Assembly (NCBI GenBank): GCA_029262815.1
Contig: JAJCYS010000029.1
Span: forward strand, 9,837-73,836
From: Deltaproteobacteria bacterium
Lineage (GTDB): Bacteria; Bdellovibrionota; JAJCYS01
Length of the DNA stretch: 64,000 nucleotides
Direction: 5' to 3'
In this document: one piece after another, positions 5,022 to 64,000 of the stretch
Position numbering within the stretch: position 1 is the first letter of the stretch
How the letters are laid out: every line of letters starts with the position of its first letter
Translations under genes and position numbers: made by a program
Notes under the pieces: generated by a model
Database searches by the model: none
The model's input: only the letters and a program-made list of their open reading frames with translations
Told to the model about the DNA's origin: nothing

Positions 5022-7220
5022 GTGTTTCGGATGATACTTAATACACACAAATCGGGAAACATTTTTTTATTAATAACTTTATGCTTAGTTCTCAGTTCAT
5101 GTAATAAAGGGGCTGATACAAATCCCAAATCTTCTGAAATTAAAAATAATCAGAATAAAAACGATTCTATTCAACAAAAACTAAAACTTGTGTTACCCGA
5201 AGAGGGATTTGGATTCACTGATGAAAGAGCAATCAACGCTTATGATCAGTTCAAAGGTAAGGATTTCTTTTCACTTACTAAAAAAGAAAGGCATAAATTA
5301 CTTTTGGCTATTTTTGAATCATCCAGTGAGTATTGGTCAAGGAACAATGAAGCAATTTTAAATTTCGCAAAGTTTATAGTGACACTCGGTAGAGATATGG
5401 CTAAGTCTGAATCCAAGTTGGATGTTGAAAAAATAAAAATAATTGAGCCAGAGAGAGAAGAATCTCTACATCATTTGATTGGGACAGGATTTTATCAGAA
5501 TCGTCCCAAATTAGATGTATTAGCAATAGCACATTTAGCTTCAGTGCTTGTACAAGTCAAGAATCCTAAATTTATACTAAGAATTGCAAAAGAAGCAGCC
5601 AAACATACAAATGTGCTTAATGTGGCAACTGCCAGGACTTTGAGTAGTGCAATTTACGATGCCAAAAAAAATATAGAATTCGGAAAAAGTAACCTAGAAA
5701 AACTAACTAGATATCAAAAAACAATTTCTGATCCAACGCCTCTTGAATTATATTCTCACAAGGATTGGTTTGGTCTTGAAGAAAAATATGGGAATATAAA
5801 ATCCGCTAAAAATGAAGAAGAAGTGCTTAAACATTGGTCTATATTGATGCAAACGTACAAAAACTCTGACACCGAACCAATGCAAAAATTAGCTATTAGA
5901 TCGTTCGTCCGGTTTATTAATAACGATCTAGGTACTGCTTTAGTTAACCATAAATTCAGAATTTTAGATTCGCAAAAGGAATTGTGGAATGACGTAAAAA
6001 GCAAAATATTGAAATTAGAGGCGACTGTAGAAATTATTAAAGAAATTGAAAAACCAATTCCACCCCACAAAGACATGGTGATTTCTGAAAAACCCAAAAT
6101 TATTCTAGAGCCAGAGCATAAGGTAGTGGCTTTGACTGTGGCTACGGTGTTCGGCGAATCACCTCAGTATTATGACTCTGCTGATACAGGGAATTCCTTT
6201 GGGACATTACCGCTTGGAACGATAGCTCACGTTTTTGAGAATAAAAACAACCATTATTTGATGGCATATACTAATACAAAATTCGATATTGATTGGGATA
6301 CTGGAAAATATGTGACTACCTATACGCCAAGAAACTGGTTGGGTTGGGTACCTGTAGACGCGTTATTGGTTCGAGAAACGCCGCTTATGCTCGAGATGTT
6401 AAAAACAGATACCTCCGATTTGGGTAAACAAATAAATAAAATTATAGCAGTCAATAAGGTGTATCAAAAATTGCCTGTGCGTGTTCTTTCCGCTTCGTCA
6501 GAAGAAGTTGCCGTTTTTTCTTCACCAGGTATTAAAATGAAAGGGAAGACGATTCATCTACTTTTGCCAAATCAAATTTATTTTGTGTACAAAGCTGTCG
6601 AAAAAGAAGGGCAATGGTATTTCTTATTGGGTCACACTGCCAGTCTTAAGAAGAGAGATCAAAGAGGAGATGCTCGGGGATTAAAAACAAATCTCTTAGG
6701 GTGGGTAAAATCCGATCAAATTTCGTTGTATTCAGAAATGGATGTGGATAAGGTTTATGTATCTGCCAGTGAATTAAAATATATTATAAGTCTGTACAGT
6801 GCAATTAAAAATACCGTCGATTTATCGAAATTAGGTAAGGAGGGTTGGCAGGTTACTCTATTGGGTAAAATTACAAAAAAGTTTTTTATTAACACAGCAA
6901 AATATGATCATGAAAAGGTCACAAAAATACTTATGAAGTTAGAATCATTAAAAGAGGTTGTGGATTACCTTATTGAAAATCAGGTGATCACATTTGTACC
7001 GCCATTAAATGCAAAAATATTTGAATCTCCTTTTGAAAGCCAAAAGGACGATATTGATCAGATTAATATAGGTTTGAAAGAAGTAAATGAAGCGATAGAA
7101 AAATTCGAAACGATCTATCGGAATGAAGAAAAAGCTGTTGTAAAATCAAAGACTCGAAGGTCTCATACGTTTGAGCATTTGTACCGTATCTACTGGATTG
7201 ACAAAAAATTATTTCCATAA
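5022..7220 (+). CDS. Large hypothetical lipoprotein (732 aa).
   Basis: Signal peptide with lipobox LSSC. Long uninterrupted ORF. No recognisable catalytic motif. Confidence 0.6.
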   Translation: MFRMILNTHKSGNIFLLITLCLVLSSCNKGADTNPKSSEIKNNQNKNDSIQQKLKLVLPEEGFGFTDERAINAYDQFKGKDFFSLTKKERHKLLLAIFESSSEYWSRNNEAILNFAKFIVTLGRDMAKSESKLDVEKIKIIEPEREESLHHLIGTGFYQNRPKLDVLAIAHLASVLVQVKNPKFILRIAKEAAKHTNVLNVATARTLSSAIYDAKKNIEFGKSNLEKLTRYQKTISDPTPLELYSHKDWFGLEEKYGNIKSAKNEEEVLKHWSILMQTYKNSDTEPMQKLAIRSFVRFINNDLGTALVNHKFRILDSQKELWNDVKSKILKLEATVEIIKEIEKPIPPHKDMVISEKPKIILEPEHKVVALTVATVFGESPQYYDSADTGNSFGTLPLGTIAHVFENKNNHYLMAYTNTKFDIDWDTGKYVTTYTPRNWLGWVPVDALLVRETPLMLEMLKTDTSDLGKQINKIIAVNKVYQKLPVRVLSASSEEVAVFSSPGIKMKGKTIHLLLPNQIYFVYKAVEKEGQWYFLLGHTASLKKRDQRGDARGLKTNLLGWVKSDQISLYSEMDVDKVYVSASELKYIISLYSAIKNTVDLSKLGKEGWQVTLLGKITKKFFINTAKYDHEKVTKILMKLESLKEVVDYLIENQVITFVPPLNAKIFESPFESQKDDIDQINIGLKEVNEAIEKFETIYRNEEKAVVKSKTRRSHTFEHLYRIYWIDKKLFP

Positions 7221-7233
7221 AAAAGAAGATGCA

Positions 7234-7308
7234 GGAGTTCTTAGGGTCTCAGAGCACTTTTTGGCACTTAAGAAGGTGCCAAAAAGTGCTCTGAGACCCT
7301 AAGAACTC
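7234..7308. terminator. Perfect ~33-bp inverted repeat between convergent genes. It could be a bidirectional terminator or a palindromic element.
   Basis: The arm gagttcttagggtctcagagcactttttggcac is followed by loop ttaagaag and then gtgccaaaaagtgctctgagaccctaagaactc. These are perfect complements. The repeat sits between the 3' ends of the 5022..7220 (+) and 7320..9104 (-) genes. Confidence 0.6.
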
Positions 7309-7319
7309 CCAAAACAACT

Positions 7320-9104
7320 TTAGGGTAAATTCTTAACCATTCTCCTAAAATTTTCCAACACAATTCCCTGAAAGGTTGGCCAGGTGGTGTCAGAAAAATC
7401 ATTAAACGTTTTTTCAAAATCTTCATACCCCAAAAAAATGCCTTTATCTTTGAAAGCGTTCAACCCTAGAACACGATCAAAAACGATTTCTGGAACCACA
7501 GATTGAAACTCTACTTCGGTTCGCGGTAACCGATTGTGCATGCTATAAAATCGTTGAACAGCTACTAAAGTGAAATATTTTAGTTTTGTGTGGTGTCCAT
7601 CTCCAGGGCTGTATTTTATTTTTTTATTATTGAGAGGGATGGTATGAAACAAGCTTAATATTTTTGATTTTATTTTGCTGTTATTTTTCTTTTTTAAATT
7701 ACATACATATAATTCATGAAGCAGTGTTTTGCCTTCATAAAAATTCATTTCGTTAAAGAAAGAATTTTCAGACAATAATACATCTGATAGCAGCAATACG
7801 TCACGCATGCCTAAAGCACTTGCATAATCCGACAACGTTTTACTCAAAACAGTTTCATCTATATGCTCAATTGTTTTATGTTCATGAGATACAAAGACTA
7901 ATTCCTTTTTTACTTCTTTGATAAATTTATCCATTACGAGATTCTGCAATGACCCTTTTGATGAACGGAGTCTGAGTTGAGCAAGTCGAAACAAGCGTTT
8001 CCGGCCACTAGCCTTTGATAGATCAAGCTCACTGTCTGGAAAATGGTTACTCTGGTATGCCACTAAGACGTGTTTTGGTAACTCTAAAAATCGATTTTCA
8101 AAGCGTTTACTCTCTATATAATTAAAAAGTTTGACCAGGTTGCTGTCAACCATGACTTCAGGATATAAAAAAGTACCTTGGGTCAATATAAGGTTGTGAT
8201 CAATTTGTAGTGTAACGATACCTGCGTCAGCAACAATCTCACTTGCTTTTAAATGTGCGAGTAGGACCAACTTCATATCTGAAGTGATCTCCTTTGGATC
8301 GATATTTAGGCGAGTTAATAACGCATCATACGTTCTGACATGGTTGCCATAAAACGCATAACGCTTATTTATCTCAAAAGCAGGGTTATTCATAACGTCT
8401 GGATATGTTCCTTCAATGTGAGTTGTGTGAGGTACAAAGCGAGAAACCAGAATGGGTAAACTCATGAGATGTGAATGAATATCTGTTTCCGAGACAGGTA
8501 GACTGTGCTTATCATTTAATAAGCTATGTAATGAAGGATAGCTAATACCCCCTAAATTAGCCTTGTAGTCATTGAGGCGATAGGTTGGCAATCTTGTGTT
8601 AGGCCAATGTGAGGGCGTGATTGTATTCAAGATAGGCACGACATATTCTGGAAAAAGAAGAGAAGCCATGTGCTGGATATGTAGATTAAATTGCGTGTGC
8701 ATAGCTGGGTATGGTCTACCCGAAGTAATCAAAAAATCTGTACTTTGTATGAGCCAACTCACGTTGTAAATATCATCAATGAATGTATCCACATTCATGT
8801 GAAACCCACTAACTGCTAGAAATACGCCGAACTGGTTGTCCCGATAGTGAAATTTTACAACCAAGTCACCATAGGTTTTATGAGGTAAGTGATACAGAAT
8901 TCCCTCATGCCCAATGGAGACGATTTTCATTTTAGTGTTCTCACGTAGTGATGTGCTTACAAGGGTGTGCAACTGCTCTTGATTCAAGGAGGGGATACAT
9001 GCAAAAACACTCTGTAAAATCCCAAATAGGGCAACTATAAAAGGGAATGAAAGTTTCAACCACATGAACTGAGCATATCTATCAAACGGGGCGTTTAAAC
9101 ACAA
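7320..9104 (-). CDS. Hypothetical protein, probably a lipoprotein or secreted protein. The true start may be the internal Met at about 9065.
   Basis: Long ORF. The internal MWLKLSFPFIVALFGILQSVFAC reads as a signal peptide plus lipobox Cys. Confidence 0.5.
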   Translation of the reverse strand: MCLNAPFDRYAQFMWLKLSFPFIVALFGILQSVFACIPSLNQEQLHTLVSTSLRENTKMKIVSIGHEGILYHLPHKTYGDLVVKFHYRDNQFGVFLAVSGFHMNVDTFIDDIYNVSWLIQSTDFLITSGRPYPAMHTQFNLHIQHMASLLFPEYVVPILNTITPSHWPNTRLPTYRLNDYKANLGGISYPSLHSLLNDKHSLPVSETDIHSHLMSLPILVSRFVPHTTHIEGTYPDVMNNPAFEINKRYAFYGNHVRTYDALLTRLNIDPKEITSDMKLVLLAHLKASEIVADAGIVTLQIDHNLILTQGTFLYPEVMVDSNLVKLFNYIESKRFENRFLELPKHVLVAYQSNHFPDSELDLSKASGRKRLFRLAQLRLRSSKGSLQNLVMDKFIKEVKKELVFVSHEHKTIEHIDETVLSKTLSDYASALGMRDVLLLSDVLLSENSFFNEMNFYEGKTLLHELYVCNLKKKNNSKIKSKILSLFHTIPLNNKKIKYSPGDGHHTKLKYFTLVAVQRFYSMHNRLPRTEVEFQSVVPEIVFDRVLGLNAFKDKGIFLGYEDFEKTFNDFSDTTWPTFQGIVLENFRRMVKNLP

Positions 9105-16701: not shown

Positions 16702-18093
16702 ATGAAACGTAGTTACAATACCGTATCAGCATTTTTGCTGCTATCCCTGGCTTTAGGGGGTTGTGCAAAAAAAGGTGCAATTGAGAACAAGCAAAAAAAT
16801 AATCAAATGGCTGCAATTCAGGCCAAGCAGAAACAGCTTGAATCTGAACTGGCGGCAAAAGAACTGAAAGATATCAATTCATATTGGATCGGGCGAACCG
16901 TTTTAATAGCGAAAGTCGTCCAAGGGGAAAACGATGTTACAGAAAAATTTCTTGGACGTTTTAAAGATACGACCCAAAATTCTCCGATAGAAGATCCTGA
17001 GTTTAATTTCAATTCAGAACGTTTTATTGTGAGTGCCATTGTAGATGGTACAAAATCAAAATTTACTTATGATACAAGTGGTGATGGTCCTAATGCTGGA
17101 CGTGTTGTATTGGAAGAAAATGGGAAAATTGTTCTAAAGAAATTTGTATTTAAAATTAAAAATAAGGAATCCGGATCAGTTTTAAGGTATGAAAGTCCAA
17201 GACTTGAATTGAGTCTTTTAGATGAAAAAAATGTCACATACTTGGTGGGTAAAGGCGAAAACGGACTAACCGTATTTTTCGAAGCCAAGGATCCAGATGC
17301 AATTGTAGCTGAAAAAAATGAGGTCATCAAAAAACAAGATGAAGATTTGAGATCTGAAAAAGAAAAATATAGTCGATTTGAAGCTGTAAAAAATCAAGAA
17401 ATTGGTGATCTTAAGTTAAAGTTAGCCAAATTTCAAAATACAACAGTTCCAAAATTAGAAACTCAGTTAAAGAAATTAAATGAAGAGACAGTCCCTGTGC
17501 TAGAAAGTGCAATAGCAACGTACAAGAACACGACAGTGCCGGGATTAGAAAACAAATTGAAAACACTCGAAAAAACAACAGTCCCCGGACTACAGCAAAA
17601 AATTGCAGTGTATAGAGATACGACGGTACCTGGATTGAACACCCAAATAGAGAATCTAGAAAATGCAGCGGGAGAAACAACAAGATTGCAAGGTATCAAA
17701 GATCAAAAACAAGTTATAGCAACGAAGAAATTGAATAATCAGTTAAAGAAATTGAACGAAGAGACAGTGCCAGGATTAGAAAGTAAAATCGCAATGTACA
17801 AGAATACGACAGTGCCGGGATTAGAAAACAAGGTAAGAGAACTTGAAGGAACAACAATCCCTGGATTGCGCCAAGAGGTTACAGTGCTTAAAGAAACGAC
17901 GGTACCCGGATTGGAAAATACGATAGAAACATACAAGACTAAAACGGTACCTGGATTAGAAAACAAAATAGCAACATACAAAAATACAACAGTACCTGGA
18001 TTAAAAAATAGAATTAAAGAACTTGAAAAACAGCTTGAGGGTAAAGAACCTGAAGAAAAGAAAGAAAAAGATGATTCTTCAGATTCTGAATAA
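16702..18093 (+). CDS. Repeat-containing lipoprotein with ~13 copies of a 15-aa unit (TTVPGLENKIxxYKN).
   Basis: Lipobox LGGC in MKRSYNTVSAFLLLSLALGGCAKKG. The in-frame 45-bp tandem repeats encode TTVPGLxxK units in two blocks, and a larger ~280-bp internal duplication (NQLKKLNEETVP.LES.IA.YKNTTVPGLENK) appears twice. Confidence 0.75.
   Translation: MKRSYNTVSAFLLLSLALGGCAKKGAIENKQKNNQMAAIQAKQKQLESELAAKELKDINSYWIGRTVLIAKVVQGENDVTEKFLGRFKDTTQNSPIEDPEFNFNSERFIVSAIVDGTKSKFTYDTSGDGPNAGRVVLEENGKIVLKKFVFKIKNKESGSVLRYESPRLELSLLDEKNVTYLVGKGENGLTVFFEAKDPDAIVAEKNEVIKKQDEDLRSEKEKYSRFEAVKNQEIGDLKLKLAKFQNTTVPKLETQLKKLNEETVPVLESAIATYKNTTVPGLENKLKTLEKTTVPGLQQKIAVYRDTTVPGLNTQIENLENAAGETTRLQGIKDQKQVIATKKLNNQLKKLNEETVPGLESKIAMYKNTTVPGLENKVRELEGTTIPGLRQEVTVLKETTVPGLENTIETYKTKTVPGLENKIATYKNTTVPGLKNRIKELEKQLEGKEPEEKKEKDDSSDSE
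17441..18040 (+). repeat. In-frame 45-bp tandem repeat array inside the lipoprotein gene.
   Basis: Recurring acgacagtgccgggattagaaaac-type units. The protein shows a 15-residue periodicity. Confidence 0.7.
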
Positions 18094-30010: not shown

Positions 30011-31006
30011 ATGAAACTAGATCTGAGATACATACTACTGACGGTGATACTTGCGTGTTTTAGCTCCCATGGATTGTCAAATAACTTACCAACAGAGCCT
30101 TCGCAGCCAGGTTCGGCAGATCAAATTGAAAAATCAAATAATCTGCCTGCGGATGAACTGCTGAATGACGAGGGGGGATTTAATTTTTTACCTTATCTTG
30201 TCTCCGGAGGCATTCTAACGCTTATTCTTTCATCCCACTACATTTGGTGGGATGAAGAGCCCGAATCTTTTCATTTTAAAGAATTCCATCCGATGCTAAG
30301 CAGAAGTTCTGATTCGGGGGGCACAGATAAATTTGGCCACATGTGGATGAATTACGTGCTTACTCGACTGGGGTCCAGGCTTATGTACCTCTTGGGTGCT
30401 GACCGTAAAGAAGCCATCATTTTCTCAGGTTTGACCGTTTTTGTAGGGTACACGCTGCTTGAGATTCAAGACGGATATACCGCTCATGGGTTTGATCCAG
30501 GTGATTTTTTGTTCAACAACTTTGGCATGCTGCTGGGTGTCATGAAAGAGATCTTTCCAGAGCTGGATAACTATTTTAGATTTCGAATGGGGTATTTTCC
30601 CAGTCGCCATTTTATTCGTGCTTTACATGCCAATGCGAAATCATGGTCTGATTTTCCTGAAGATTATGCAGGATTAACCTATTATTTTGACTTTATACTG
30701 CCTTTTGTTCCTTTTTTAACGGTTGGTTTACACTGGGTGACCAAAGGATATCAATGGCCAGATGAGGATCCGCCAGTTCCCTTTTCACGAAAAAAAGAGC
30801 GATTTTTAGGGGTTCATGTCGGCATTAATGGGTCTTATTTGATTCGAACATTCATGAATCCACGATTTATATCAACCAAGATCTTCTACTTTTTAGACCA
30901 ATTAATTGCCGTTCCCTTTTCGATGATCGAATTTAAATTTAGTTTAGACGAAAGCTCAAATCGGTTGACCTTCGGAATTAATTCACACATAGTTATCAAA
31001 ATATAA
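30011..31006 (+). CDS. Hypothetical secreted protein.
   Basis: Signal peptide MKLDLRYILLTVILACFSSHGLS. Confidence 0.5.
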   Translation: MKLDLRYILLTVILACFSSHGLSNNLPTEPSQPGSADQIEKSNNLPADELLNDEGGFNFLPYLVSGGILTLILSSHYIWWDEEPESFHFKEFHPMLSRSSDSGGTDKFGHMWMNYVLTRLGSRLMYLLGADRKEAIIFSGLTVFVGYTLLEIQDGYTAHGFDPGDFLFNNFGMLLGVMKEIFPELDNYFRFRMGYFPSRHFIRALHANAKSWSDFPEDYAGLTYYFDFILPFVPFLTVGLHWVTKGYQWPDEDPPVPFSRKKERFLGVHVGINGSYLIRTFMNPRFISTKIFYFLDQLIAVPFSMIEFKFSLDESSNRLTFGINSHIVIKI

Positions 31007-31150
31007 CCTCGTTTATTTATGAGACCGGTTCAAGCTATAATACTGTTGAGTTATTATGGGCAGTATTACATTTCACGCGTTGATATCTAGCCAATTTCCT
31101 AAACAGATGTTATTTTGGGGCGTTTCCGCTATTGAGTTGCTGGAGGCGTT

Positions 31151-42192: not shown

Positions 42193-42269
42193 ATCTTCCC
42201 CCCGGTTCTAGATCATTAAATCGAACAGGGGTTCAATTTACAATCTTGACTTTTTGAATTTGAAGTTAT

Positions 42270-42455
42270 TTAGGGCGTGTCCTCATTAGGGATTCGTTAT
42301 GAGGAAATGGAGATTTTGATTCGAAACGAGGAGGTTGAGTGAAAAAACCGCAGGTGTAGTAGCGCTACATCGAGGATTCTTTCATGAAAATCGACGAAGT
42401 TGTAGGCCAAAAGATCTATTCCACAGTAGAATCTCTAATGAGGACACGCCCTAGC
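42270..42455 (+). mobile_element. MITE-like element, family B, copy 1 (~185 bp with ~25-bp terminal inverted repeats).
   Basis: The termini tagggcgtgtcctcattagggattcg and gaatctctaatgaggacacgccctag are inverted repeats. The whole element recurs reverse-complemented at 62675..62850. Confidence 0.75.
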
Positions 42456-42987
42456 TGAATTTGGGTTTGAAAGACAAAGTCATCCCGATGAGTACAGCAT
42501 TATTAAAGACTTGTGCCCCAAGCCCCAAACGAAATCCATTTTCAATATGGTAGTACAAGCAGAGTTCAGTCGATGCGAGGTTGAACCCTTGGCTAAAGAC
42601 ATACGTGAGGCCAGTCTGGGCGGTTAGGATTAAATAACGGAGTAAAAACCAATCAAATCCGATAAGGGTGTGTATTGAGAAAAGATACTGACTAGCGTTA
42701 CCAAAGATACTCGCCCCCGATGCGACGAATCCCTGAAACATACGGCCCGTTGTATGGAATTTTAACGAAAGGGGGACGGTACCTCCATAGAGATCAACTG
42801 CTTCGAAATTAGTAGCTATGAAAAGCTCTGGCTTTGCTGAAAAAGATAACCATTTTTGAATGGGCACGACAATTTCAATTTCGGGATTGACCATGCCAAG
42901 GACACTAAAAGAGGGCTCTTCAGCAGTGGCCAGCTGAGCTGTTGTGAACCCTAAAAGTAAGATGGATAAAAAGAAAAAATTTTTCAT
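42451..42987 (-). CDS. Small outer-membrane beta-barrel-like protein.
   Basis: Signal peptide MKNFFFLSILLLGFTTAQLATA. Small (178 aa) with beta-strand-like alternation. Its stop codon TAG is the terminal trinucleotide of the family B element. Confidence 0.5.
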   Translation of the reverse strand: MKNFFFLSILLLGFTTAQLATAEEPSFSVLGMVNPEIEIVVPIQKWLSFSAKPELFIATNFEAVDLYGGTVPLSLKFHTTGRMFQGFVASGASIFGNASQYLFSIHTLIGFDWFLLRYLILTAQTGLTYVFSQGFNLASTELCLYYHIENGFRLGLGAQVFNNAVLIGMTLSFKPKFS

Positions 42988-44533: not shown

Positions 44534-45748
44534 ATGCGTATTTTATTAACAAACACAGGACCATGGGGAACGGGCAGCTCTGCTGTCATCGAAGGTGTTA
44601 AATCTGAACTGCTTCGGTTGGGCCATCAGGTCAAGGTGATCTTGCCTGATCGCCAAGAGAACATCGCAGGCATGAACTTGAACCCTGATCACTATCATGT
44701 CATGACGTTTCCAACCAGCTATCAAGGTGAAGCATTCTATACCTTTCCGCTCATGATCTCTGACCCAAATCCTCGTAACCTCAGGGGTGCTTGGACCTTT
44801 AAAGAAATGCCTCAGGCTGCTTTTGAAGCCTATCAGGGTTACTTAAAATCTGAGTTAGCTTCTGTTATCCAAGAATTCAAACCTGATCTGGTCGAAACAC
44901 ATCATGTTTGGCTAACAGGCTACGTGTTGAGTCAACTCAATATCCCATACGTCTGTTGTGCCCATAACTCAGATCAACTGGGATTTGAATTTGATGAGCG
45001 AATGCAGCCGTACGCCAAAACGTGTGCCCAACAAGCGCAAAAAATATTTGCACTCTCTGAGTCAAACAAAGCGCAAATCGTATCTCTCTATGATGTCGCG
45101 CCTGAAAAAACGCCTATTTTAGTAAATGGATACGACAGCGAGACGTTCAAACCCATGCATATTAATAAAGCGGAACTTTTTGATGCCTACGATATTCAAT
45201 ACCCGTTAGATTTACCCGTTGTTGTGTTTGGTGGAAAATTATCAAAAATTAAAGGCATTGACGTCTTGCTTGAAGCGAATGCTCAGCTTCAAAAAACGAC
45301 GCCATGCGTTATGATTGTATTTGGTACTGGGGAATTGAACGACGCACTAGAGCGGTGTCCCACAGATGAAGAGACCAATCGAGTTGTGTTCATGGGACAT
45401 CAACCGGGTTCGGTGCTTGCACAGTTTTACAACTGTGCCGAAGTCAGTGTGTTACCCTCTCGAAACGAAGGATTTCCATTGTCTGTATTAGAAGCGATGG
45501 GATGTGGGGTACCGATTGTTGCCAGCAGGATTTGTAAATTGGAAGATCATATTATCGGAGAAACCGTACCACCCGAAGATCCCGGTGCGCTCTCAGACGC
45601 CTTGATCCGTCTCCTTGGTCAATCCCATGCGGCACATGTGGCTATGAAGCAACAAGTGTTGAATCACATTAAACATTATACGTGGGCTGAGAATGTAAAA
45701 ATTCGAGTGAAATTGTACGAGCAAGTCTTGCGAGAAACAAACTCTTAA
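44534..45748 (+). CDS. GT4-family glycosyltransferase.
   Basis: C-terminal EGFPLSVLEAMGCGVPIVAS is the GT4 (EX7E) signature. Confidence 0.8.
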   Translation: MRILLTNTGPWGTGSSAVIEGVKSELLRLGHQVKVILPDRQENIAGMNLNPDHYHVMTFPTSYQGEAFYTFPLMISDPNPRNLRGAWTFKEMPQAAFEAYQGYLKSELASVIQEFKPDLVETHHVWLTGYVLSQLNIPYVCCAHNSDQLGFEFDERMQPYAKTCAQQAQKIFALSESNKAQIVSLYDVAPEKTPILVNGYDSETFKPMHINKAELFDAYDIQYPLDLPVVVFGGKLSKIKGIDVLLEANAQLQKTTPCVMIVFGTGELNDALERCPTDEETNRVVFMGHQPGSVLAQFYNCAEVSVLPSRNEGFPLSVLEAMGCGVPIVASRICKLEDHIIGETVPPEDPGALSDALIRLLGQSHAAHVAMKQQVLNHIKHYTWAENVKIRVKLYEQVLRETNS

Positions 45749-45778
45749 GCGACCTCTTTTTCAGGACTCTTTTTTTTA

Positions 45779-45955
45779 GAACCGGACTCGTAAATAACTT
45801 CGTAAAGAGATCAAGCGAAATCTGTAGCCTCAAGGCCGCAGGTGAAAAATGCTCGGAGGTGGCCACATTGGCCATCGAGAACATTTTTTACCGAGAACGA
45901 CGAGGCTGGGCAGATTGCAGCTGATCGGAATAGAGGTTATTTATGAGTCCGGTTT
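45779..45955 (+). mobile_element. MITE-like element, family A, copy 1 (~177 bp with 19-20-bp terminal inverted repeats).
   Basis: gaaccggactcgtaaataac pairs with gttatttatgagtccggttt. It is about 94% identical to 63619..63800. It carries the internal palindrome ggccacattggcc. Confidence 0.8.
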
Positions 45956-46933
45956 AAGTTCTTTGAGCTTCATTTCCCAACGATACGCGTGGCTAACGAT
46001 CTCACTTAAGTTGTCGAACTGGGGCTTCCAACCGAGAACGGCTTTAATTTTGTCGCATACTGCAATCAACTGCTCTGCGTCACCAGCACGTCGGCCAGCT
46101 TCTTTGACCGTAAAGGCTACACCCGAAGCACGCTGTACTTCCTCAATAACTTCTTTGACACTATATCCATGACCGTACCCAACATTAAGCAGCGTGGATT
46201 CACCGCCATTTTCCAGATACGTGAGTGCATCAAGATGTGCCCGAGATAAATCTTCAATATGGATATAGTCTCGAATTGCTGTTCGATCAGGCGTATTGTA
46301 ATCCGTTCCATAAATTTCCATGTGAGACCGCTGTCCCGTAGCAGTTTCGCATGCAACTTTGATGAGATGGGTGGCATTTCGGGTGCGTTGGCCCATGCGA
46401 CACTCTGGATCAGCCCCTGCTACATTAAAATATCTCAGGGCAACATATTTTAGGGGATGTGCTTTTACGATATCTTCTAACATCATTTCAGTTAGCAATT
46501 TCGATTGTCCGTAAGGGTTCAAGGGGGCAGGTGAAGACAACTCATCAGCTTGACCACTTACGGGTGATCCATAAATTGCTGCTGTACTTGAAAAAATAAA
46601 TCGATGAACATTGTTTGCAAGGCACGTCTCAACCAATCCCAACGTATTACAGGTATTGTTTCTAAAATATTTTATGGGGTGGGTGACAGATTCACTAACG
46701 GTTTGAAAGGCAGCGAAATGAAGTACAGCATCAAACTGCTCCGCTTGAAATAATGCATCAAGTTTTTCTAGATCTGCTAAATCAATTGAAACCAATTTCT
46801 CGTCATAAATAAGGGCGTCTCCGTAGCCGGCCTTCAGGTTATCGAGTACGACAACCGTATGTCCTGCTTCGGACAACTGTCGTGTGACATGACTGCCAAT
46901 GTAGCCTGCGCCGCCTGTAACCAATAATTTCAT
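45941..46933 (-). CDS. galE: UDP-glucose 4-epimerase.
   Basis: MKLLVTGGAGYIGSHVTRQL, then YGQSKLLTEMML (YxxxK). The ORF-track N-terminal extension to 47056 is rejected. The last 4 codons and the stop lie inside the family A TIR. Confidence 0.85.
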   Translation of the reverse strand: MKLLVTGGAGYIGSHVTRQLSEAGHTVVVLDNLKAGYGDALIYDEKLVSIDLADLEKLDALFQAEQFDAVLHFAAFQTVSESVTHPIKYFRNNTCNTLGLVETCLANNVHRFIFSSTAAIYGSPVSGQADELSSPAPLNPYGQSKLLTEMMLEDIVKAHPLKYVALRYFNVAGADPECRMGQRTRNATHLIKVACETATGQRSHMEIYGTDYNTPDRTAIRDYIHIEDLSRAHLDALTYLENGGESTLLNVGYGHGYSVKEVIEEVQRASGVAFTVKEAGRRAGDAEQLIAVCDKIKAVLGWKPQFDNLSEIVSHAYRWEMKLKELKPDS

Positions 46934-51321: not shown

Positions 51322-51855
51322 ATGAAAATCTATACCAAAAAAGGTGACCTTGGCCAGACACAAACCTTGGGGAGTGGGCGTGTGCCTAAGGATGATCAAA
51401 GACTTCATGTGGGGGGCCTCATCGATACGTGTAATTCAACTGTCGGATTTTTGTGCTCACTATTGCCCAGTGATGACCCACTGACTGACAATCTTCACCG
51501 CATTCAACGTGGCTTATTTAGCCTTGGACTTGAGGTAACGGGTGGACGTCAACAAGACCATATGTTAAATGAATCAGACGTAACATTTTTAGAATCTCAA
51601 ATCGATCAATATTGGGATACTTGTCCGCCGCTCACAAAGTTTGTTTTACCAGGTGGCACACCATCTTCGTGTCAAGCCCATCTGTGTCGTGTCCAGGTGC
51701 GGACAATGGAACGCTCTCTGGTTACCCTCTGCCGAGAAACCAACACACCATTTGATTTGGGACTGCAATATGTGAATCGTTTGAGTGACTATTTTTTTGC
51801 TATAGCACGATATTTGAATCATCAAGCGGACATGGGAGAAGTAACATGGCCTTAG
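51322..51855 (+). CDS. PduO-type ATP:cob(I)alamin adenosyltransferase.
   Basis: The N-terminus MKIYTKKGDLGQTQTLGSGRVPKDDQRLHVGGLIDTCNS matches the PduO/MMAB family consensus MKIYT.TGD.G.TSL..G.RV.K. Confidence 0.8.
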   Translation: MKIYTKKGDLGQTQTLGSGRVPKDDQRLHVGGLIDTCNSTVGFLCSLLPSDDPLTDNLHRIQRGLFSLGLEVTGGRQQDHMLNESDVTFLESQIDQYWDTCPPLTKFVLPGGTPSSCQAHLCRVQVRTMERSLVTLCRETNTPFDLGLQYVNRLSDYFFAIARYLNHQADMGEVTWP

Positions 51856-53045
51856 GAGAGTCCAGCCGTATCCCCGGCTTTTATAAATTAAAGTTTAATC
51901 AGAAATTGACTCACATTTCTGAATTAACAGGTATCTCCCTAGAACGGTTAAACGGAGCATTCCAATCCCTGCACATGGCTCAAACAGGCATCGATGAGTT
52001 GGTCGAAAACTGTATTGGTGCGCTCTCAGTACCGTTGGGTATTGCGCCAAATTTCAAAATAAATGGAAAAGACTATCTTGTGCCAATGGCTGTAGAAGAG
52101 AGCTCCGTGATTGCGGCTGCCTCAAAAGGGGCTAGGGTCACATATGAATCAGGCGGGTTCGCGAGTGAACTTTTAGACAACATGATGATCGGGCAAGTTC
52201 AGTTTTCAATTCGAGATGAAAAAGATGCTGACACCGTACGAGATAAAATTGCGTCTTATGAAGAATCGTTGCTAAGTGATTTAAATGAAGTCATTCCAGG
52301 GATGGTTCATCGAGGCGGTGGGGTTCGTGCAATCTATGCACGTGGGCCTTTTACCTATCAAAGTCATACTTTTTTGGTGATCCAAGTCGATGTATCGGTG
52401 CAAGATGCCATGGGCGCCAATGTCACCAACCATGTGTGTGAACGCTTAGGAAAATTATTAAACCGTATGGTACCCGGGCAAACCAACACATGTATTCTTA
52501 GCAACCTCGCAACCAAGCGACTCGTGCATACGACCTGCCGTGTACATTTATCAGAAATAGTGCCTGAGCACGAATGGGATGATGCAATCCGTCGTTTTGA
52601 ATTGGTCCAAGGATTTGCTGAAGTGGACCCTTTTCGTGCAGTCACCCACAACAAAGGAATCATGAACGGCATTGATGCTGTGCTCTTGGCCACAGGAAAC
52701 GATTGGCGGGCGAACGAAGCAGGTGCGTTTGGATACGCAAGCCTATCCGGTCGCATAAAACCCCTTTCTCATTGGCGTGCTGAAAAACCCTACTTATTTG
52801 GAGAGCTCCAACTTCCCATCCAACTCGGAATTGTAGGTGGGGTCACCCGAATTCACCCCACCGCCAAACTCAGCCTAGACATCTTAGGCATTGAGCATGG
52901 CAAAGAACTAGCAGAGCTCGTAGGAGCCGTCGGTTTAGCTCAAAATTTTAGCGCCTTACGTGCCCTAGCTTTTGAAGGCATCATGGAGGGGCATATGCGA
53001 TTGCACAAAAAAAACCTCAAACGCCACAAGACGCTTGCTGAGTAA
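51846..53045 (+). CDS. mvaA: Class II hydroxymethylglutaryl-CoA reductase.
   Basis: ENCIG (the ENVIG motif), DAMGANV and GIVGG motifs. Its ~400-aa length and N-terminus resemble the Pseudomonas mevalonii class II enzyme. Overlaps the upstream gene by 10 nt. Confidence 0.85.
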   Translation: MALGESSRIPGFYKLKFNQKLTHISELTGISLERLNGAFQSLHMAQTGIDELVENCIGALSVPLGIAPNFKINGKDYLVPMAVEESSVIAAASKGARVTYESGGFASELLDNMMIGQVQFSIRDEKDADTVRDKIASYEESLLSDLNEVIPGMVHRGGGVRAIYARGPFTYQSHTFLVIQVDVSVQDAMGANVTNHVCERLGKLLNRMVPGQTNTCILSNLATKRLVHTTCRVHLSEIVPEHEWDDAIRRFELVQGFAEVDPFRAVTHNKGIMNGIDAVLLATGNDWRANEAGAFGYASLSGRIKPLSHWRAEKPYLFGELQLPIQLGIVGGVTRIHPTAKLSLDILGIEHGKELAELVGAVGLAQNFSALRALAFEGIMEGHMRLHKKNLKRHKTLAE

Positions 53046-62573: not shown

Positions 62574-62674
62574 ATTAGTACGTAACAGGGACGGCTTTTA
62601 TTAGGATTAAATTACGACATTTTTTTACGTGTTTAAAGAACTTTTTTGCTTTTACATGGGAGGATACTAAGACG

Positions 62675-62850
62675 AGTTCTCACGAGGGATTCTACTGCGG
62701 AATAGATCTTTTGGCCAACGACTTCGTCGATTTTCATGAAAAAATCCTCGATGTAGCGCTACTACACCTGCGGTTTCTCCACTCAATCTCCTCGTTTCGG
62801 CTCAAAATCTCAATTTCCTCGCAACGAATCCCTTATGAGGACACGTCCTA
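62675..62850 (-). mobile_element. MITE-like element, family B, copy 2 (reverse orientation, left TIR partly degenerate).
   Basis: Reverse-complement alignment to 42270..42455 along its whole length, for example cgattttcatgaaa(a/g)aatcctcgatgtagcgctactacacctgcggttt. It lies in the divergent region between feoB and the 62926 ORF. Confidence 0.7.
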
Positions 62851-62925
62851 AAAAAGAGGGGGTAGATACTCAAACTTTTGAAAAGAGTACTGGTTTTTGA
62901 ATCAGGGCCTTGTTAGGTTTGGGGC

Positions 62926-63633
62926 ATGTTATCTCCTGAATTGTTGCTACCACACTATTTACCTTCTTTACGGACTTCGCCCACGGATCGCCTGGTATTG
63001 GGGTTTAGCTATGAGCAATCAAAGGCGTTGAACAGCCTCAAAAAGTGGGGGCAGGTGGACCCAATTGCCTACCGTCGCCCCGTAAGTCTCTACCATGTTC
63101 GACCCAATACGGATGAGTACGCTCCACTTCTAGTCGGATTCATGCATGGATTCGGGTTTCAAACGCTTTGGGTCTTATTGTCTGAGTTTCAGGCTTGGGG
63201 CATACGGTCGGTTGTTCTGACAGGGTTTGGAGGGCACACATTCAAGGCGCCTAAGGGTCAAGGATATTGGATTTCAAAGGCTTATAAACAAATTTCAAAC
63301 ACAGAAATTTCATCCGATGCAGTCAAACCTCAAACGCCTGTTACAAAACATCCTTTGGGTCGTGCTGAAGTCTCATGCGTCTCAACCTTTTCACCTTATG
63401 AATCTCAGTTGGATTTATCTCCGGTTATCGATATTGAGTATATAGTCGATATGGAAGTGGCATGGTTTTTTGAGCGATGTAATGCATTATCGTTGGCCTG
63501 CGGGGCAGTTCTCAGGGCATATGATTTTCTAGGGAGCCGTGCATATAAACCGAATGTGCACACGCCTCTTGATGTAAAAAATGATTTAGAACATTTACTA
63601 CATCAAATGATGACACTAGAACCGGTCTCATAA
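62926..63633 (+). CDS. Nucleoside phosphorylase-superfamily-like protein (possibly MTA/futalosine nucleosidase-like).
   Basis: VVLTGFGG and VDMEVAWFFERC resemble the PNP_UDP_1 glycine-rich and (E)ME(x)AA motifs. The last four codons and the stop lie in the family A TIR. Confidence 0.4.
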   Translation: MLSPELLLPHYLPSLRTSPTDRLVLGFSYEQSKALNSLKKWGQVDPIAYRRPVSLYHVRPNTDEYAPLLVGFMHGFGFQTLWVLLSEFQAWGIRSVVLTGFGGHTFKAPKGQGYWISKAYKQISNTEISSDAVKPQTPVTKHPLGRAEVSCVSTFSPYESQLDLSPVIDIEYIVDMEVAWFFERCNALSLACGAVLRAYDFLGSRAYKPNVHTPLDVKNDLEHLLHQMMTLEPVS

Positions 63634-63800
63634 ATAACTTCGTAATGAGATCGAGCGAAATCTGTAGCCTCAAGGCCGCAGGTGAAAAATGCTCGGAGGT
63701 GGCCTCATTGGCCACCCGAGAACATTTTTTACCGAGAACGACGAGGCTGGGCAGATTGCAGCTGATCGGAATAGAAGTTATTTATGAGACCGGTTCTAAC
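63619..63800 (+). mobile_element. MITE-like element, family A, copy 2 (~182 bp with perfect 20-bp TIRs).
   Basis: gaaccggtctcataaataac pairs with gttatttatgagaccggttc. About 94% identical to 45779..45955. Confidence 0.8.
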
Positions 63801-64000
63801 TTCAGAAGAGGGCTAGGGTTTTATGTGTGCACTCTTTTACTGGCATCCGTGTGAGGCTGGGAGAATGCGTCACATTGCCACAAAGTGCTCAAGTATGTTG
63901 TAAGCCATTCATAATGGGCAATGAGCGCCCCAAACGCTTCAGGGGTTAATTTATTCAGTAAGAGTAGGGTCATGGGTGTAGGCAAGAGTAAGTCGATATG

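Follow-up and report, generated by a model that had tools for sequence, protein, structure and literature searches.

Do the small repeats that adjoin galE and an unrelated 235-aa ORF supply the last codons and the stop codons of these two genes, and were native gene ends displaced in the process? The first-pass annotation of this locus, a 64-kb stretch of DNA analysed as a whole and here called the window, had claimed that both copies of a repeat, family A, give the adjacent gene its C-terminal residues and its stop, and direct reading bears this out. The 235-aa ORF ends in cta GAA CCG GTC TCA TAA (...MTLEPVS; longer C-terminus ...LEHLLHQMMTLEPVS), where the capitals are the left TIR of copy 2, and galE ends in ctt aAA CCG GAC TCA TAA (...KELKPDS; longer C-terminus ...AYRWEMKLKELKPDS), where they are the right TIR of copy 1. 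Each gene runs into its TIR from the outside, and in the same TIR frame, as had also been proposed; the sequence common to both is CCG GNC TCA TAA. The reading developed below is that family A is, very probably, a TA-targeting non-autonomous MITE of ~177 bp, the TIRs of which have replaced the non-conserved tails and stops of the two genes. The features concerned are collected in Table 1.

Table 1. Family A and family B elements, same-TIR elements of other genomes, and the genes and reconstructed gene ends concerned (positions are those of the window, except for L006 and L014).
Feature	Position	Strand	Description
Family A MITE copy 1	45779..45954		176 bp; TIRs with 2 mismatches; right TIR without terminal C
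Copy 1 flanking TA	45777-45778 and 45955-45956
Family A MITE copy 2	63619..63796		178 bp; perfect 23-nt TIRs at 63619-63641 and 63774-63796
Copy 2 putative target-site duplication	left TA 63617..63618; right TA 63797-63798		direct reading
Solo family A right TIR	31013..31031		19/19 nt; 6 nt past the stop of DUF2279 ORF 30011-31006; AA-flanked
Family B MITE-like copies	42266-42454 and 62667-62855		189 nt; 88% identical; inverted orientation; TA-flanked
L006 element	7089-7208		Pyrinomonadaceae (acidobacterial) MAG; ~120 bp; TA/TA flanks
L014 element	6437-6611		uncultured Pseudomonadota MAG; ~175 bp; TT/TT flanks; just past an intrinsic terminator hairpin
galE (UDP-glucose 4-epimerase)	45941..46933	-	(K)PDS and stop at 45941-45954 plus A 45955, right TIR of copy 1
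Putative native GalE tail (reconstructed)	45746..45776	-	KKSPEKEVA and TAA; far side of copy 1
235-aa orphan ORF	62926..63633	+	last four codons and stop (63619-63633, EPVS and stop) in the left TIR of copy 2
Putative native tail of the 235-aa ORF (reconstructed)	63799..63815	+	TSEEG and TAG; displaced downstream by the insertion
Putative empty sites of the two insertions (reconstructed)			...ACACTAACTTCAG... and ...GAACTTAAAAAAAAGAGTCC...

Family A is a new family of small non-coding mobile element of the MITE kind. Its size (under about 300-500 bp), its TIRs and the TA flanks present on each copy are those of a MITE, and the sole ORF inside it is a 69-aa read-through frame, with no transposase coding. 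The window holds two full copies, 95% identical over ~177 nt with 10 differences including two single-base gaps, and one solo TIR; a TIR probe of 20 nt finds 4 matches in the window, where shuffled sequences give an expectation of 0.00. The TIR sequence of the family is GAACCGGTCTCATAAATAAC. In copy 2 the two TIRs read GAACCGGTCTCATAAATAACTTC ... GAAGTTATTTATGAGACCGGTTC, with 23/23 nt paired, and the junctions (marked by slashes) read cacTA/GAACCGG...CCGGTTC/TAactt. The junctions of copy 1 read tttTA/GAACCGG...CCGGTT/TAagtt, which is a TA/TA layout provided that a terminal C was lost from the right TIR; derivation of this end by two substitutions instead of a base loss was rejected on the grounds that the GalE protein then reconstructed, worked by hand, is implausibly long. 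We infer the insertion of both copies from the anatomy of the element, because no empty site is seen: GalE has no match closer than 63% identity, and for the 235-aa ORF, an orphan, there is none at all. The solo TIR is probably the remnant of a deleted family A copy; a partner TIR for it was not detected.

Imperfect palindromes placed directly at the 3' ends of ORFs could also be sites of site-specific recombination, for example integron attC sites, which can contain the stop codons of cassette ORFs. The likelihood of this is practically negligible: 178 bp is longer than a typical attC, the copies lie 18 kb apart among housekeeping genes (galE, feoB), a scan of approximately 25 of the 52 window ORFs of at least 120 aa gave no integrase-like match, and the 2-bp flanking duplication indicates transposition. 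The ends of family A, compared by eye, also do not fit the attC core-site consensus, RYYYAAC/GTTRRRY.

For a TA-targeting MITE of this kind, the donation of stop codons follows from the TIR sequence, in which TA+G gives TAG and TCATAA gives TAA. The junction reads TA/GAACCGGNCTCATAAATAA, and when all four ends are translated inward in three frames, stops are met in two of the three. Frame 1 is GAA CCG GTC TCA TAA, that is, four codons and then a stop; in frame 2 the junction codon TA+G is itself TAG, an immediate stop; and frame 3 is open, for 22 codons at the right end of copy 1 (as modelled) and up to the whole element at the left end of copy 2. A gene entered in either of the first two frames therefore terminates almost at once. 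That two copies share one frame has a probability of ~1/3 by chance and is not significant. Measured from the flanking TA, moreover, the entry frames of galE and the 235-aa ORF differ, because the galE-side TIR of copy 1 is without its outermost base. This missing terminal base shifts galE into the four-codon frame: if copy 1 is modelled with the base kept, galE enters frame 3 and acquires a 22-residue tail (RTGLINNLYSDQLQSAQPRRSR, then a stop). One may speculate from this single case that the base loss at the galE-side terminus was a compensatory frameshift. It is, in our judgement, quite unlikely that the stop codons at the element ends are a selected 'safe-landing' feature that keeps read-through minimal in the tails of essential genes; the conservation of the CTCATAA motif in the TIR of family B and in the same-TIR elements of two other phyla (both described below) would fit such a feature.

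The claim that gene ends were exchanged has to be weighed against the possibility that the ...P-D/V-S ending is native gene sequence and that the element begins past the stop codon. Nothing favors this beyond the fact that no empty site has been observed, and we regard it as very improbable, given that the tail codons are mirrored base for base in the partner TIR at the opposite end of the element and that a native ending would need 15 nt to be shared by chance between two unrelated genes on opposite strands. Alignment of GalE with its homologues, the check that the first-pass annotation had put forward, points the same way: the KPDS ending occurs in 0/16 of them. Most of these homologues come from Desulfuromonadales, and the best reach 60-63% identity. 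They are conserved through RWExKL and continue from there to their ends with about 2-19 variable residues.

The displaced ends can be reconstructed by deleting each element together with one TA. On this procedure GalE would have ended in ...KLKEL-KKKSPEKEVA, a reading that depends on the length of a T8 homopolymer, so that the insertion would have exchanged 10 residues for 4; with the Lys spanning the junction counted as retained, the figures are 9 and 3. The replaced segment lies outside the conserved core of the protein, which is why the insertion would have been tolerated. At 45746-45748 the reconstructed galE stop overlaps with that of the GT4 glycosyltransferase gene (44534-45748, plus strand), which is convergent with galE. 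In the pre-insertion arrangement thus reconstructed, the two genes overlap at their stops (TTAA, 45746-45749), and it is the MITE that now separates them, by 192 bp. For the 235-aa ORF the same procedure gives ...HQMMTL-TSEEG with a native TAG at 63813-63815, five residues being replaced by four. Chimeric C-termini, which had been predicted from the first reading of the sequence, are thus present, with only 3-4 residues replacing 5-10, and the replaced tails were probably short and dispensable.

The second of these two cases stands only if the 235-aa ORF is a gene. It has no homologue among 5.8 billion proteins, where a search returned the self match only, and no Pfam match, and it is bracketed by two MITEs, the second copy of family B and copy 2 of family A. 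Were it not a gene, the overlap with copy 2 would be an annotation artefact and only one stop donation would be meaningful. We consider this unlikely, since the codon usage of the ORF (0.142 bits/codon) is within 1 SD of that of 30 confident training ORFs (0.187 +/- 0.047), the five alternative frames all score negative, and orphan ORFs are common in the window, which makes orphan status the norm in this lineage. Its GC content by codon position also resembles that of galE, feoB and the GT4 gene. The 235-aa ORF is therefore probably a real, predicted orphan gene.

A second family of MITE-like elements in the window, family B, has the TIR TA/GGGCGTGTCCTCATTAGGGATTCG, and the layout GTC(C)TCATAA...TTCG is common to both families. 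Family B copy 1 lies with its right end exactly in the stop codon of the minus-strand ORF 42451-42987, a TAG composed of the duplicated TA and the first G of the TIR; the native stop of this ORF, as reconstructed, is a TAA in the same position as the present TAG. Family B copy 2 lies between the start of feoB and the start of the 235-aa ORF. On the left side of family B copy 1, 11 flanking nucleotides (42262-42272) match the TIR of family A, a resemblance set aside as coincidental (E about 2). The preference of such elements for gene ends can be judged against the TA sites at which insertion is tolerable, defined as intergenic sites and those in the last 10 codons plus the stop of a gene, of which ~24% fall in gene tails. 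Both family A copies are in gene tails (2/2, p ~0.06, suggestive only), and for families A and B together 3/4 full copies touch gene 3' ends (p ~0.045), which is mildly unexpected and compatible with selection against insertion in 5' regulatory regions.

The same placement would be expected if the element were kept at gene 3' ends for a function, as a bidirectional terminator, as an mRNA-stabilising or RNase III-target hairpin, or as a source of sRNA. The entire element folds as one very stable hairpin, with a dG of -101.1 kcal/mol where shuffled sequences give -46.6 +/- 4.4 (z = -12.3), and pairing is retained through the substitutions that distinguish the copies: a compensatory double change affects the two TIRs (T8/A171 to A8/T171), and another three differences are compatible with wobble (G-U) pairs, a pattern that is suggestive as far as two sequences allow. 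Copy 1, in addition, sits between convergent genes that have no other terminator-like site, and functions of this type have been reported for Correia and ERIC-type elements (PMC2229807; PMC2649163). Against this, a U-run is absent behind the hairpin on both strands, and scans of the element found no promoter- or terminator-like sites above the shuffled expectation and no tRNA. Rfam gives 0 matches in the window, the sole weak match being a chance one to mir-255 (E 0.38). With two copies only, moreover, the conservation of pairing is not significant (3 wobble changes, p ~0.125), and it is equally expected from symmetric transposase-binding sites. A functional role of this sort seems to us improbable; it would in any case not conflict with an origin as a MITE.

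The TIR of family A is found beyond this lineage. Its 19-nt core, GAACCGGTCTCATAAATAA, also delimits small elements in two distant MAGs, one acidobacterial and one of an uncultured member of the Pseudomonadota (L006 and L014 in Table 1). The interiors of these elements are unrelated to that of family A, and neither element donates a stop codon. TA/TA flanks are present in 3/4 elements that carry the family A TIR, copy 1 being read with its base loss and L014 being the exception. The sharing of a TIR core between unrelated interiors suggests that different MITEs may use one transposase family, as such sharing would be expected in that case. The acidobacterial element has as neighbours an ORF of 409 aa and the 3' fragment of a tRNA; ARAGORN finds no tRNA gene there.

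These two elements are the yield of searches in three contig collections. A strict 22-nt TIR pattern gave 0 matches in genome contigs and 0 in viral contigs, and its single match in metagenome contigs was attributed to chance, as it lies inside coding-like sequence. A looser 19-nt pattern gave 16 single matches, where ~35 were estimated by chance, and only in L006 and L014 is there a second, inverted TIR nearby; the matches in L003, L007, L013, L009, L002 and L016 proved, on reading, to be chance or to have no clear element, and the gene that flanks the match in L013 encodes a TPR protein and no transposase. No TIR pair ~1 kb apart, as a parent IS would have, appeared in the TIR scans of these collections, and no transposase match came from the roughly 25 ORFs scanned out of the 52 in the window that reach 120 aa. 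By blastn, neither the element nor its TIR had a match in plasmids or in 5,426 complete E. coli genomes, and a literature search for the TIR string returned only an unrelated match of primer type.

The duplication of TA would be explained by mobilisation in trans, by a transposase of the IS630/Tc1-mariner type or another TA-duplicating transposase encoded elsewhere. Each copy would have landed on a TA within the last 5-10 codons of a gene. Both surviving insertions use the four-codon frame, and the native tail would have been exchanged for 3-4 residues and the stop of the element. Their persistence may be due to the position of the replaced residues, outside the conserved protein core. The stops themselves would have no dedicated function and would simply follow from the TIR sequence, which presumably serves as the binding site of the transposase. 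As a secondary effect, the insertions would place a very stable hairpin right behind the stop in each mRNA, which could alter 3'-end formation or stability; this is proposed because such effects are reported for other MITEs.

Family A belongs to no named family and can be likened to known elements in kind, on the basis of their descriptions. Correia elements duplicate TA, and their TIR (TATAGTGGATTAACAAAAACCGG...) is unlike that of family A. E. coli genomes carry ERIC, which is not known to have a clear TA duplication, and by blastn family A has no similarity to any of the 5,426 complete E. coli genomes. The comparison with the Correia and ERIC types made in the first-pass annotation accordingly holds as a likeness in kind; as membership it fails, there being no blastn similarity to the E. 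coli genomes and no resemblance to the Correia TIR. Correia elements (CREE/NEMIS) are gene-adjacent, measure 100-160 bp, have TIRs and give rise to long hairpin transcripts that bind RNase III (PMC2229807; PMC2649163), and ERIC/IRU and RU-1/2/3 are imperfect palindromes of ~100-170 bp that are intergenic or fused to ORFs, including C-terminal fusions (PMC2229807; PMC2759123). Correia elements are restricted to Neisseria, and in family A neither an IHF site nor a promoter at the junctions was detected.

The placement of MITEs at gene 3' ends and the encoding of C-termini by MITEs, the former having been called typical when the locus was first read, have a clear precedent in Coxiella, where the overlaps of QMITE1 and QMITE2 with genes such as ubiB, pntAA, mutT, nagZ, recN and ruvB measure 1-50 bp (PMC5896051) and where, in the Dugway strain, EnhC owes its last 33 residues to a QMITE2 copy (Wachter et al. 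2018, PMC5896051). Like family A, these are small TIR-bounded hairpin elements of a proteobacterial genome that overlap gene 3' ends. They are set apart, by their descriptions, by another size and architecture, whereas family A has clean TA flanks; QMITE2 is reported with a unique direct repeat for each copy, unlike family A. The RUP of pneumococcus inserts at TA, is 107 bp long and has TIRs like those of IS630-Spn1, to which it has been attributed (PMC2229807). The mobilisation proposed for RUP and family A is the same, but a parent IS is known for RUP and none was found for family A in the searches described above. Fusions with ORFs are formed by Correia, ERIC/RU and RPE elements (PMC2229807; PMC10969869). 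Among these, the Rickettsia palindromic elements (RPE, ~150 bp) alter host proteins by translational fusion (PMC10969869), being located in frame inside genes and read through, whereas in family A two of the three frames end translation before a sixth codon is reached, and the insertions are at extreme 3' ends only.

The window as a whole (GC 41%) comes from an organism without close database relatives: GalE and MurJ have best matches of 63% and 44-49% identity, respectively. The two named matches among the best of MurJ are from Gammaproteobacteria; the lineage was taken to be probably gammaproteobacterial. Approximately 12 of the approximately 25 ORFs scanned have no Pfam or NCBIfam match. 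Several other features of the window were noted in passing. A degradative-type HMG-CoA reductase is encoded at 51846-53045. Between the convergent ORFs 5022-7220 (+) and 7320-9104 (-) there is an inverted repeat with perfectly matching 34-nt arms and a loop of 8 nt (7234-7309), probably a bidirectional terminator. In-frame tandem repeats with a 45-nt period (units up to 276 nt) occupy 17423-18011, inside ORF 16702-18093, and encode a motif of the ...T-V-P-G-L-E-N-K... type.

Gene termini encoded by MITEs have already been documented, and here they are an ordinary and largely incidental side effect of insertion; because of this precedent no new biological question is opened. The chief value of the finding is for annotation, in that the C-termini and stops of galE and of the 235-aa gene are to be read as derived from the element and the native ends as lying beyond it. 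The window carries at least two previously undescribed families of TA-targeting MITEs, and the presence of one TIR core in this lineage and in acidobacterial and proteobacterial MAGs hints at a widespread transposase family that may be traceable from its ends.
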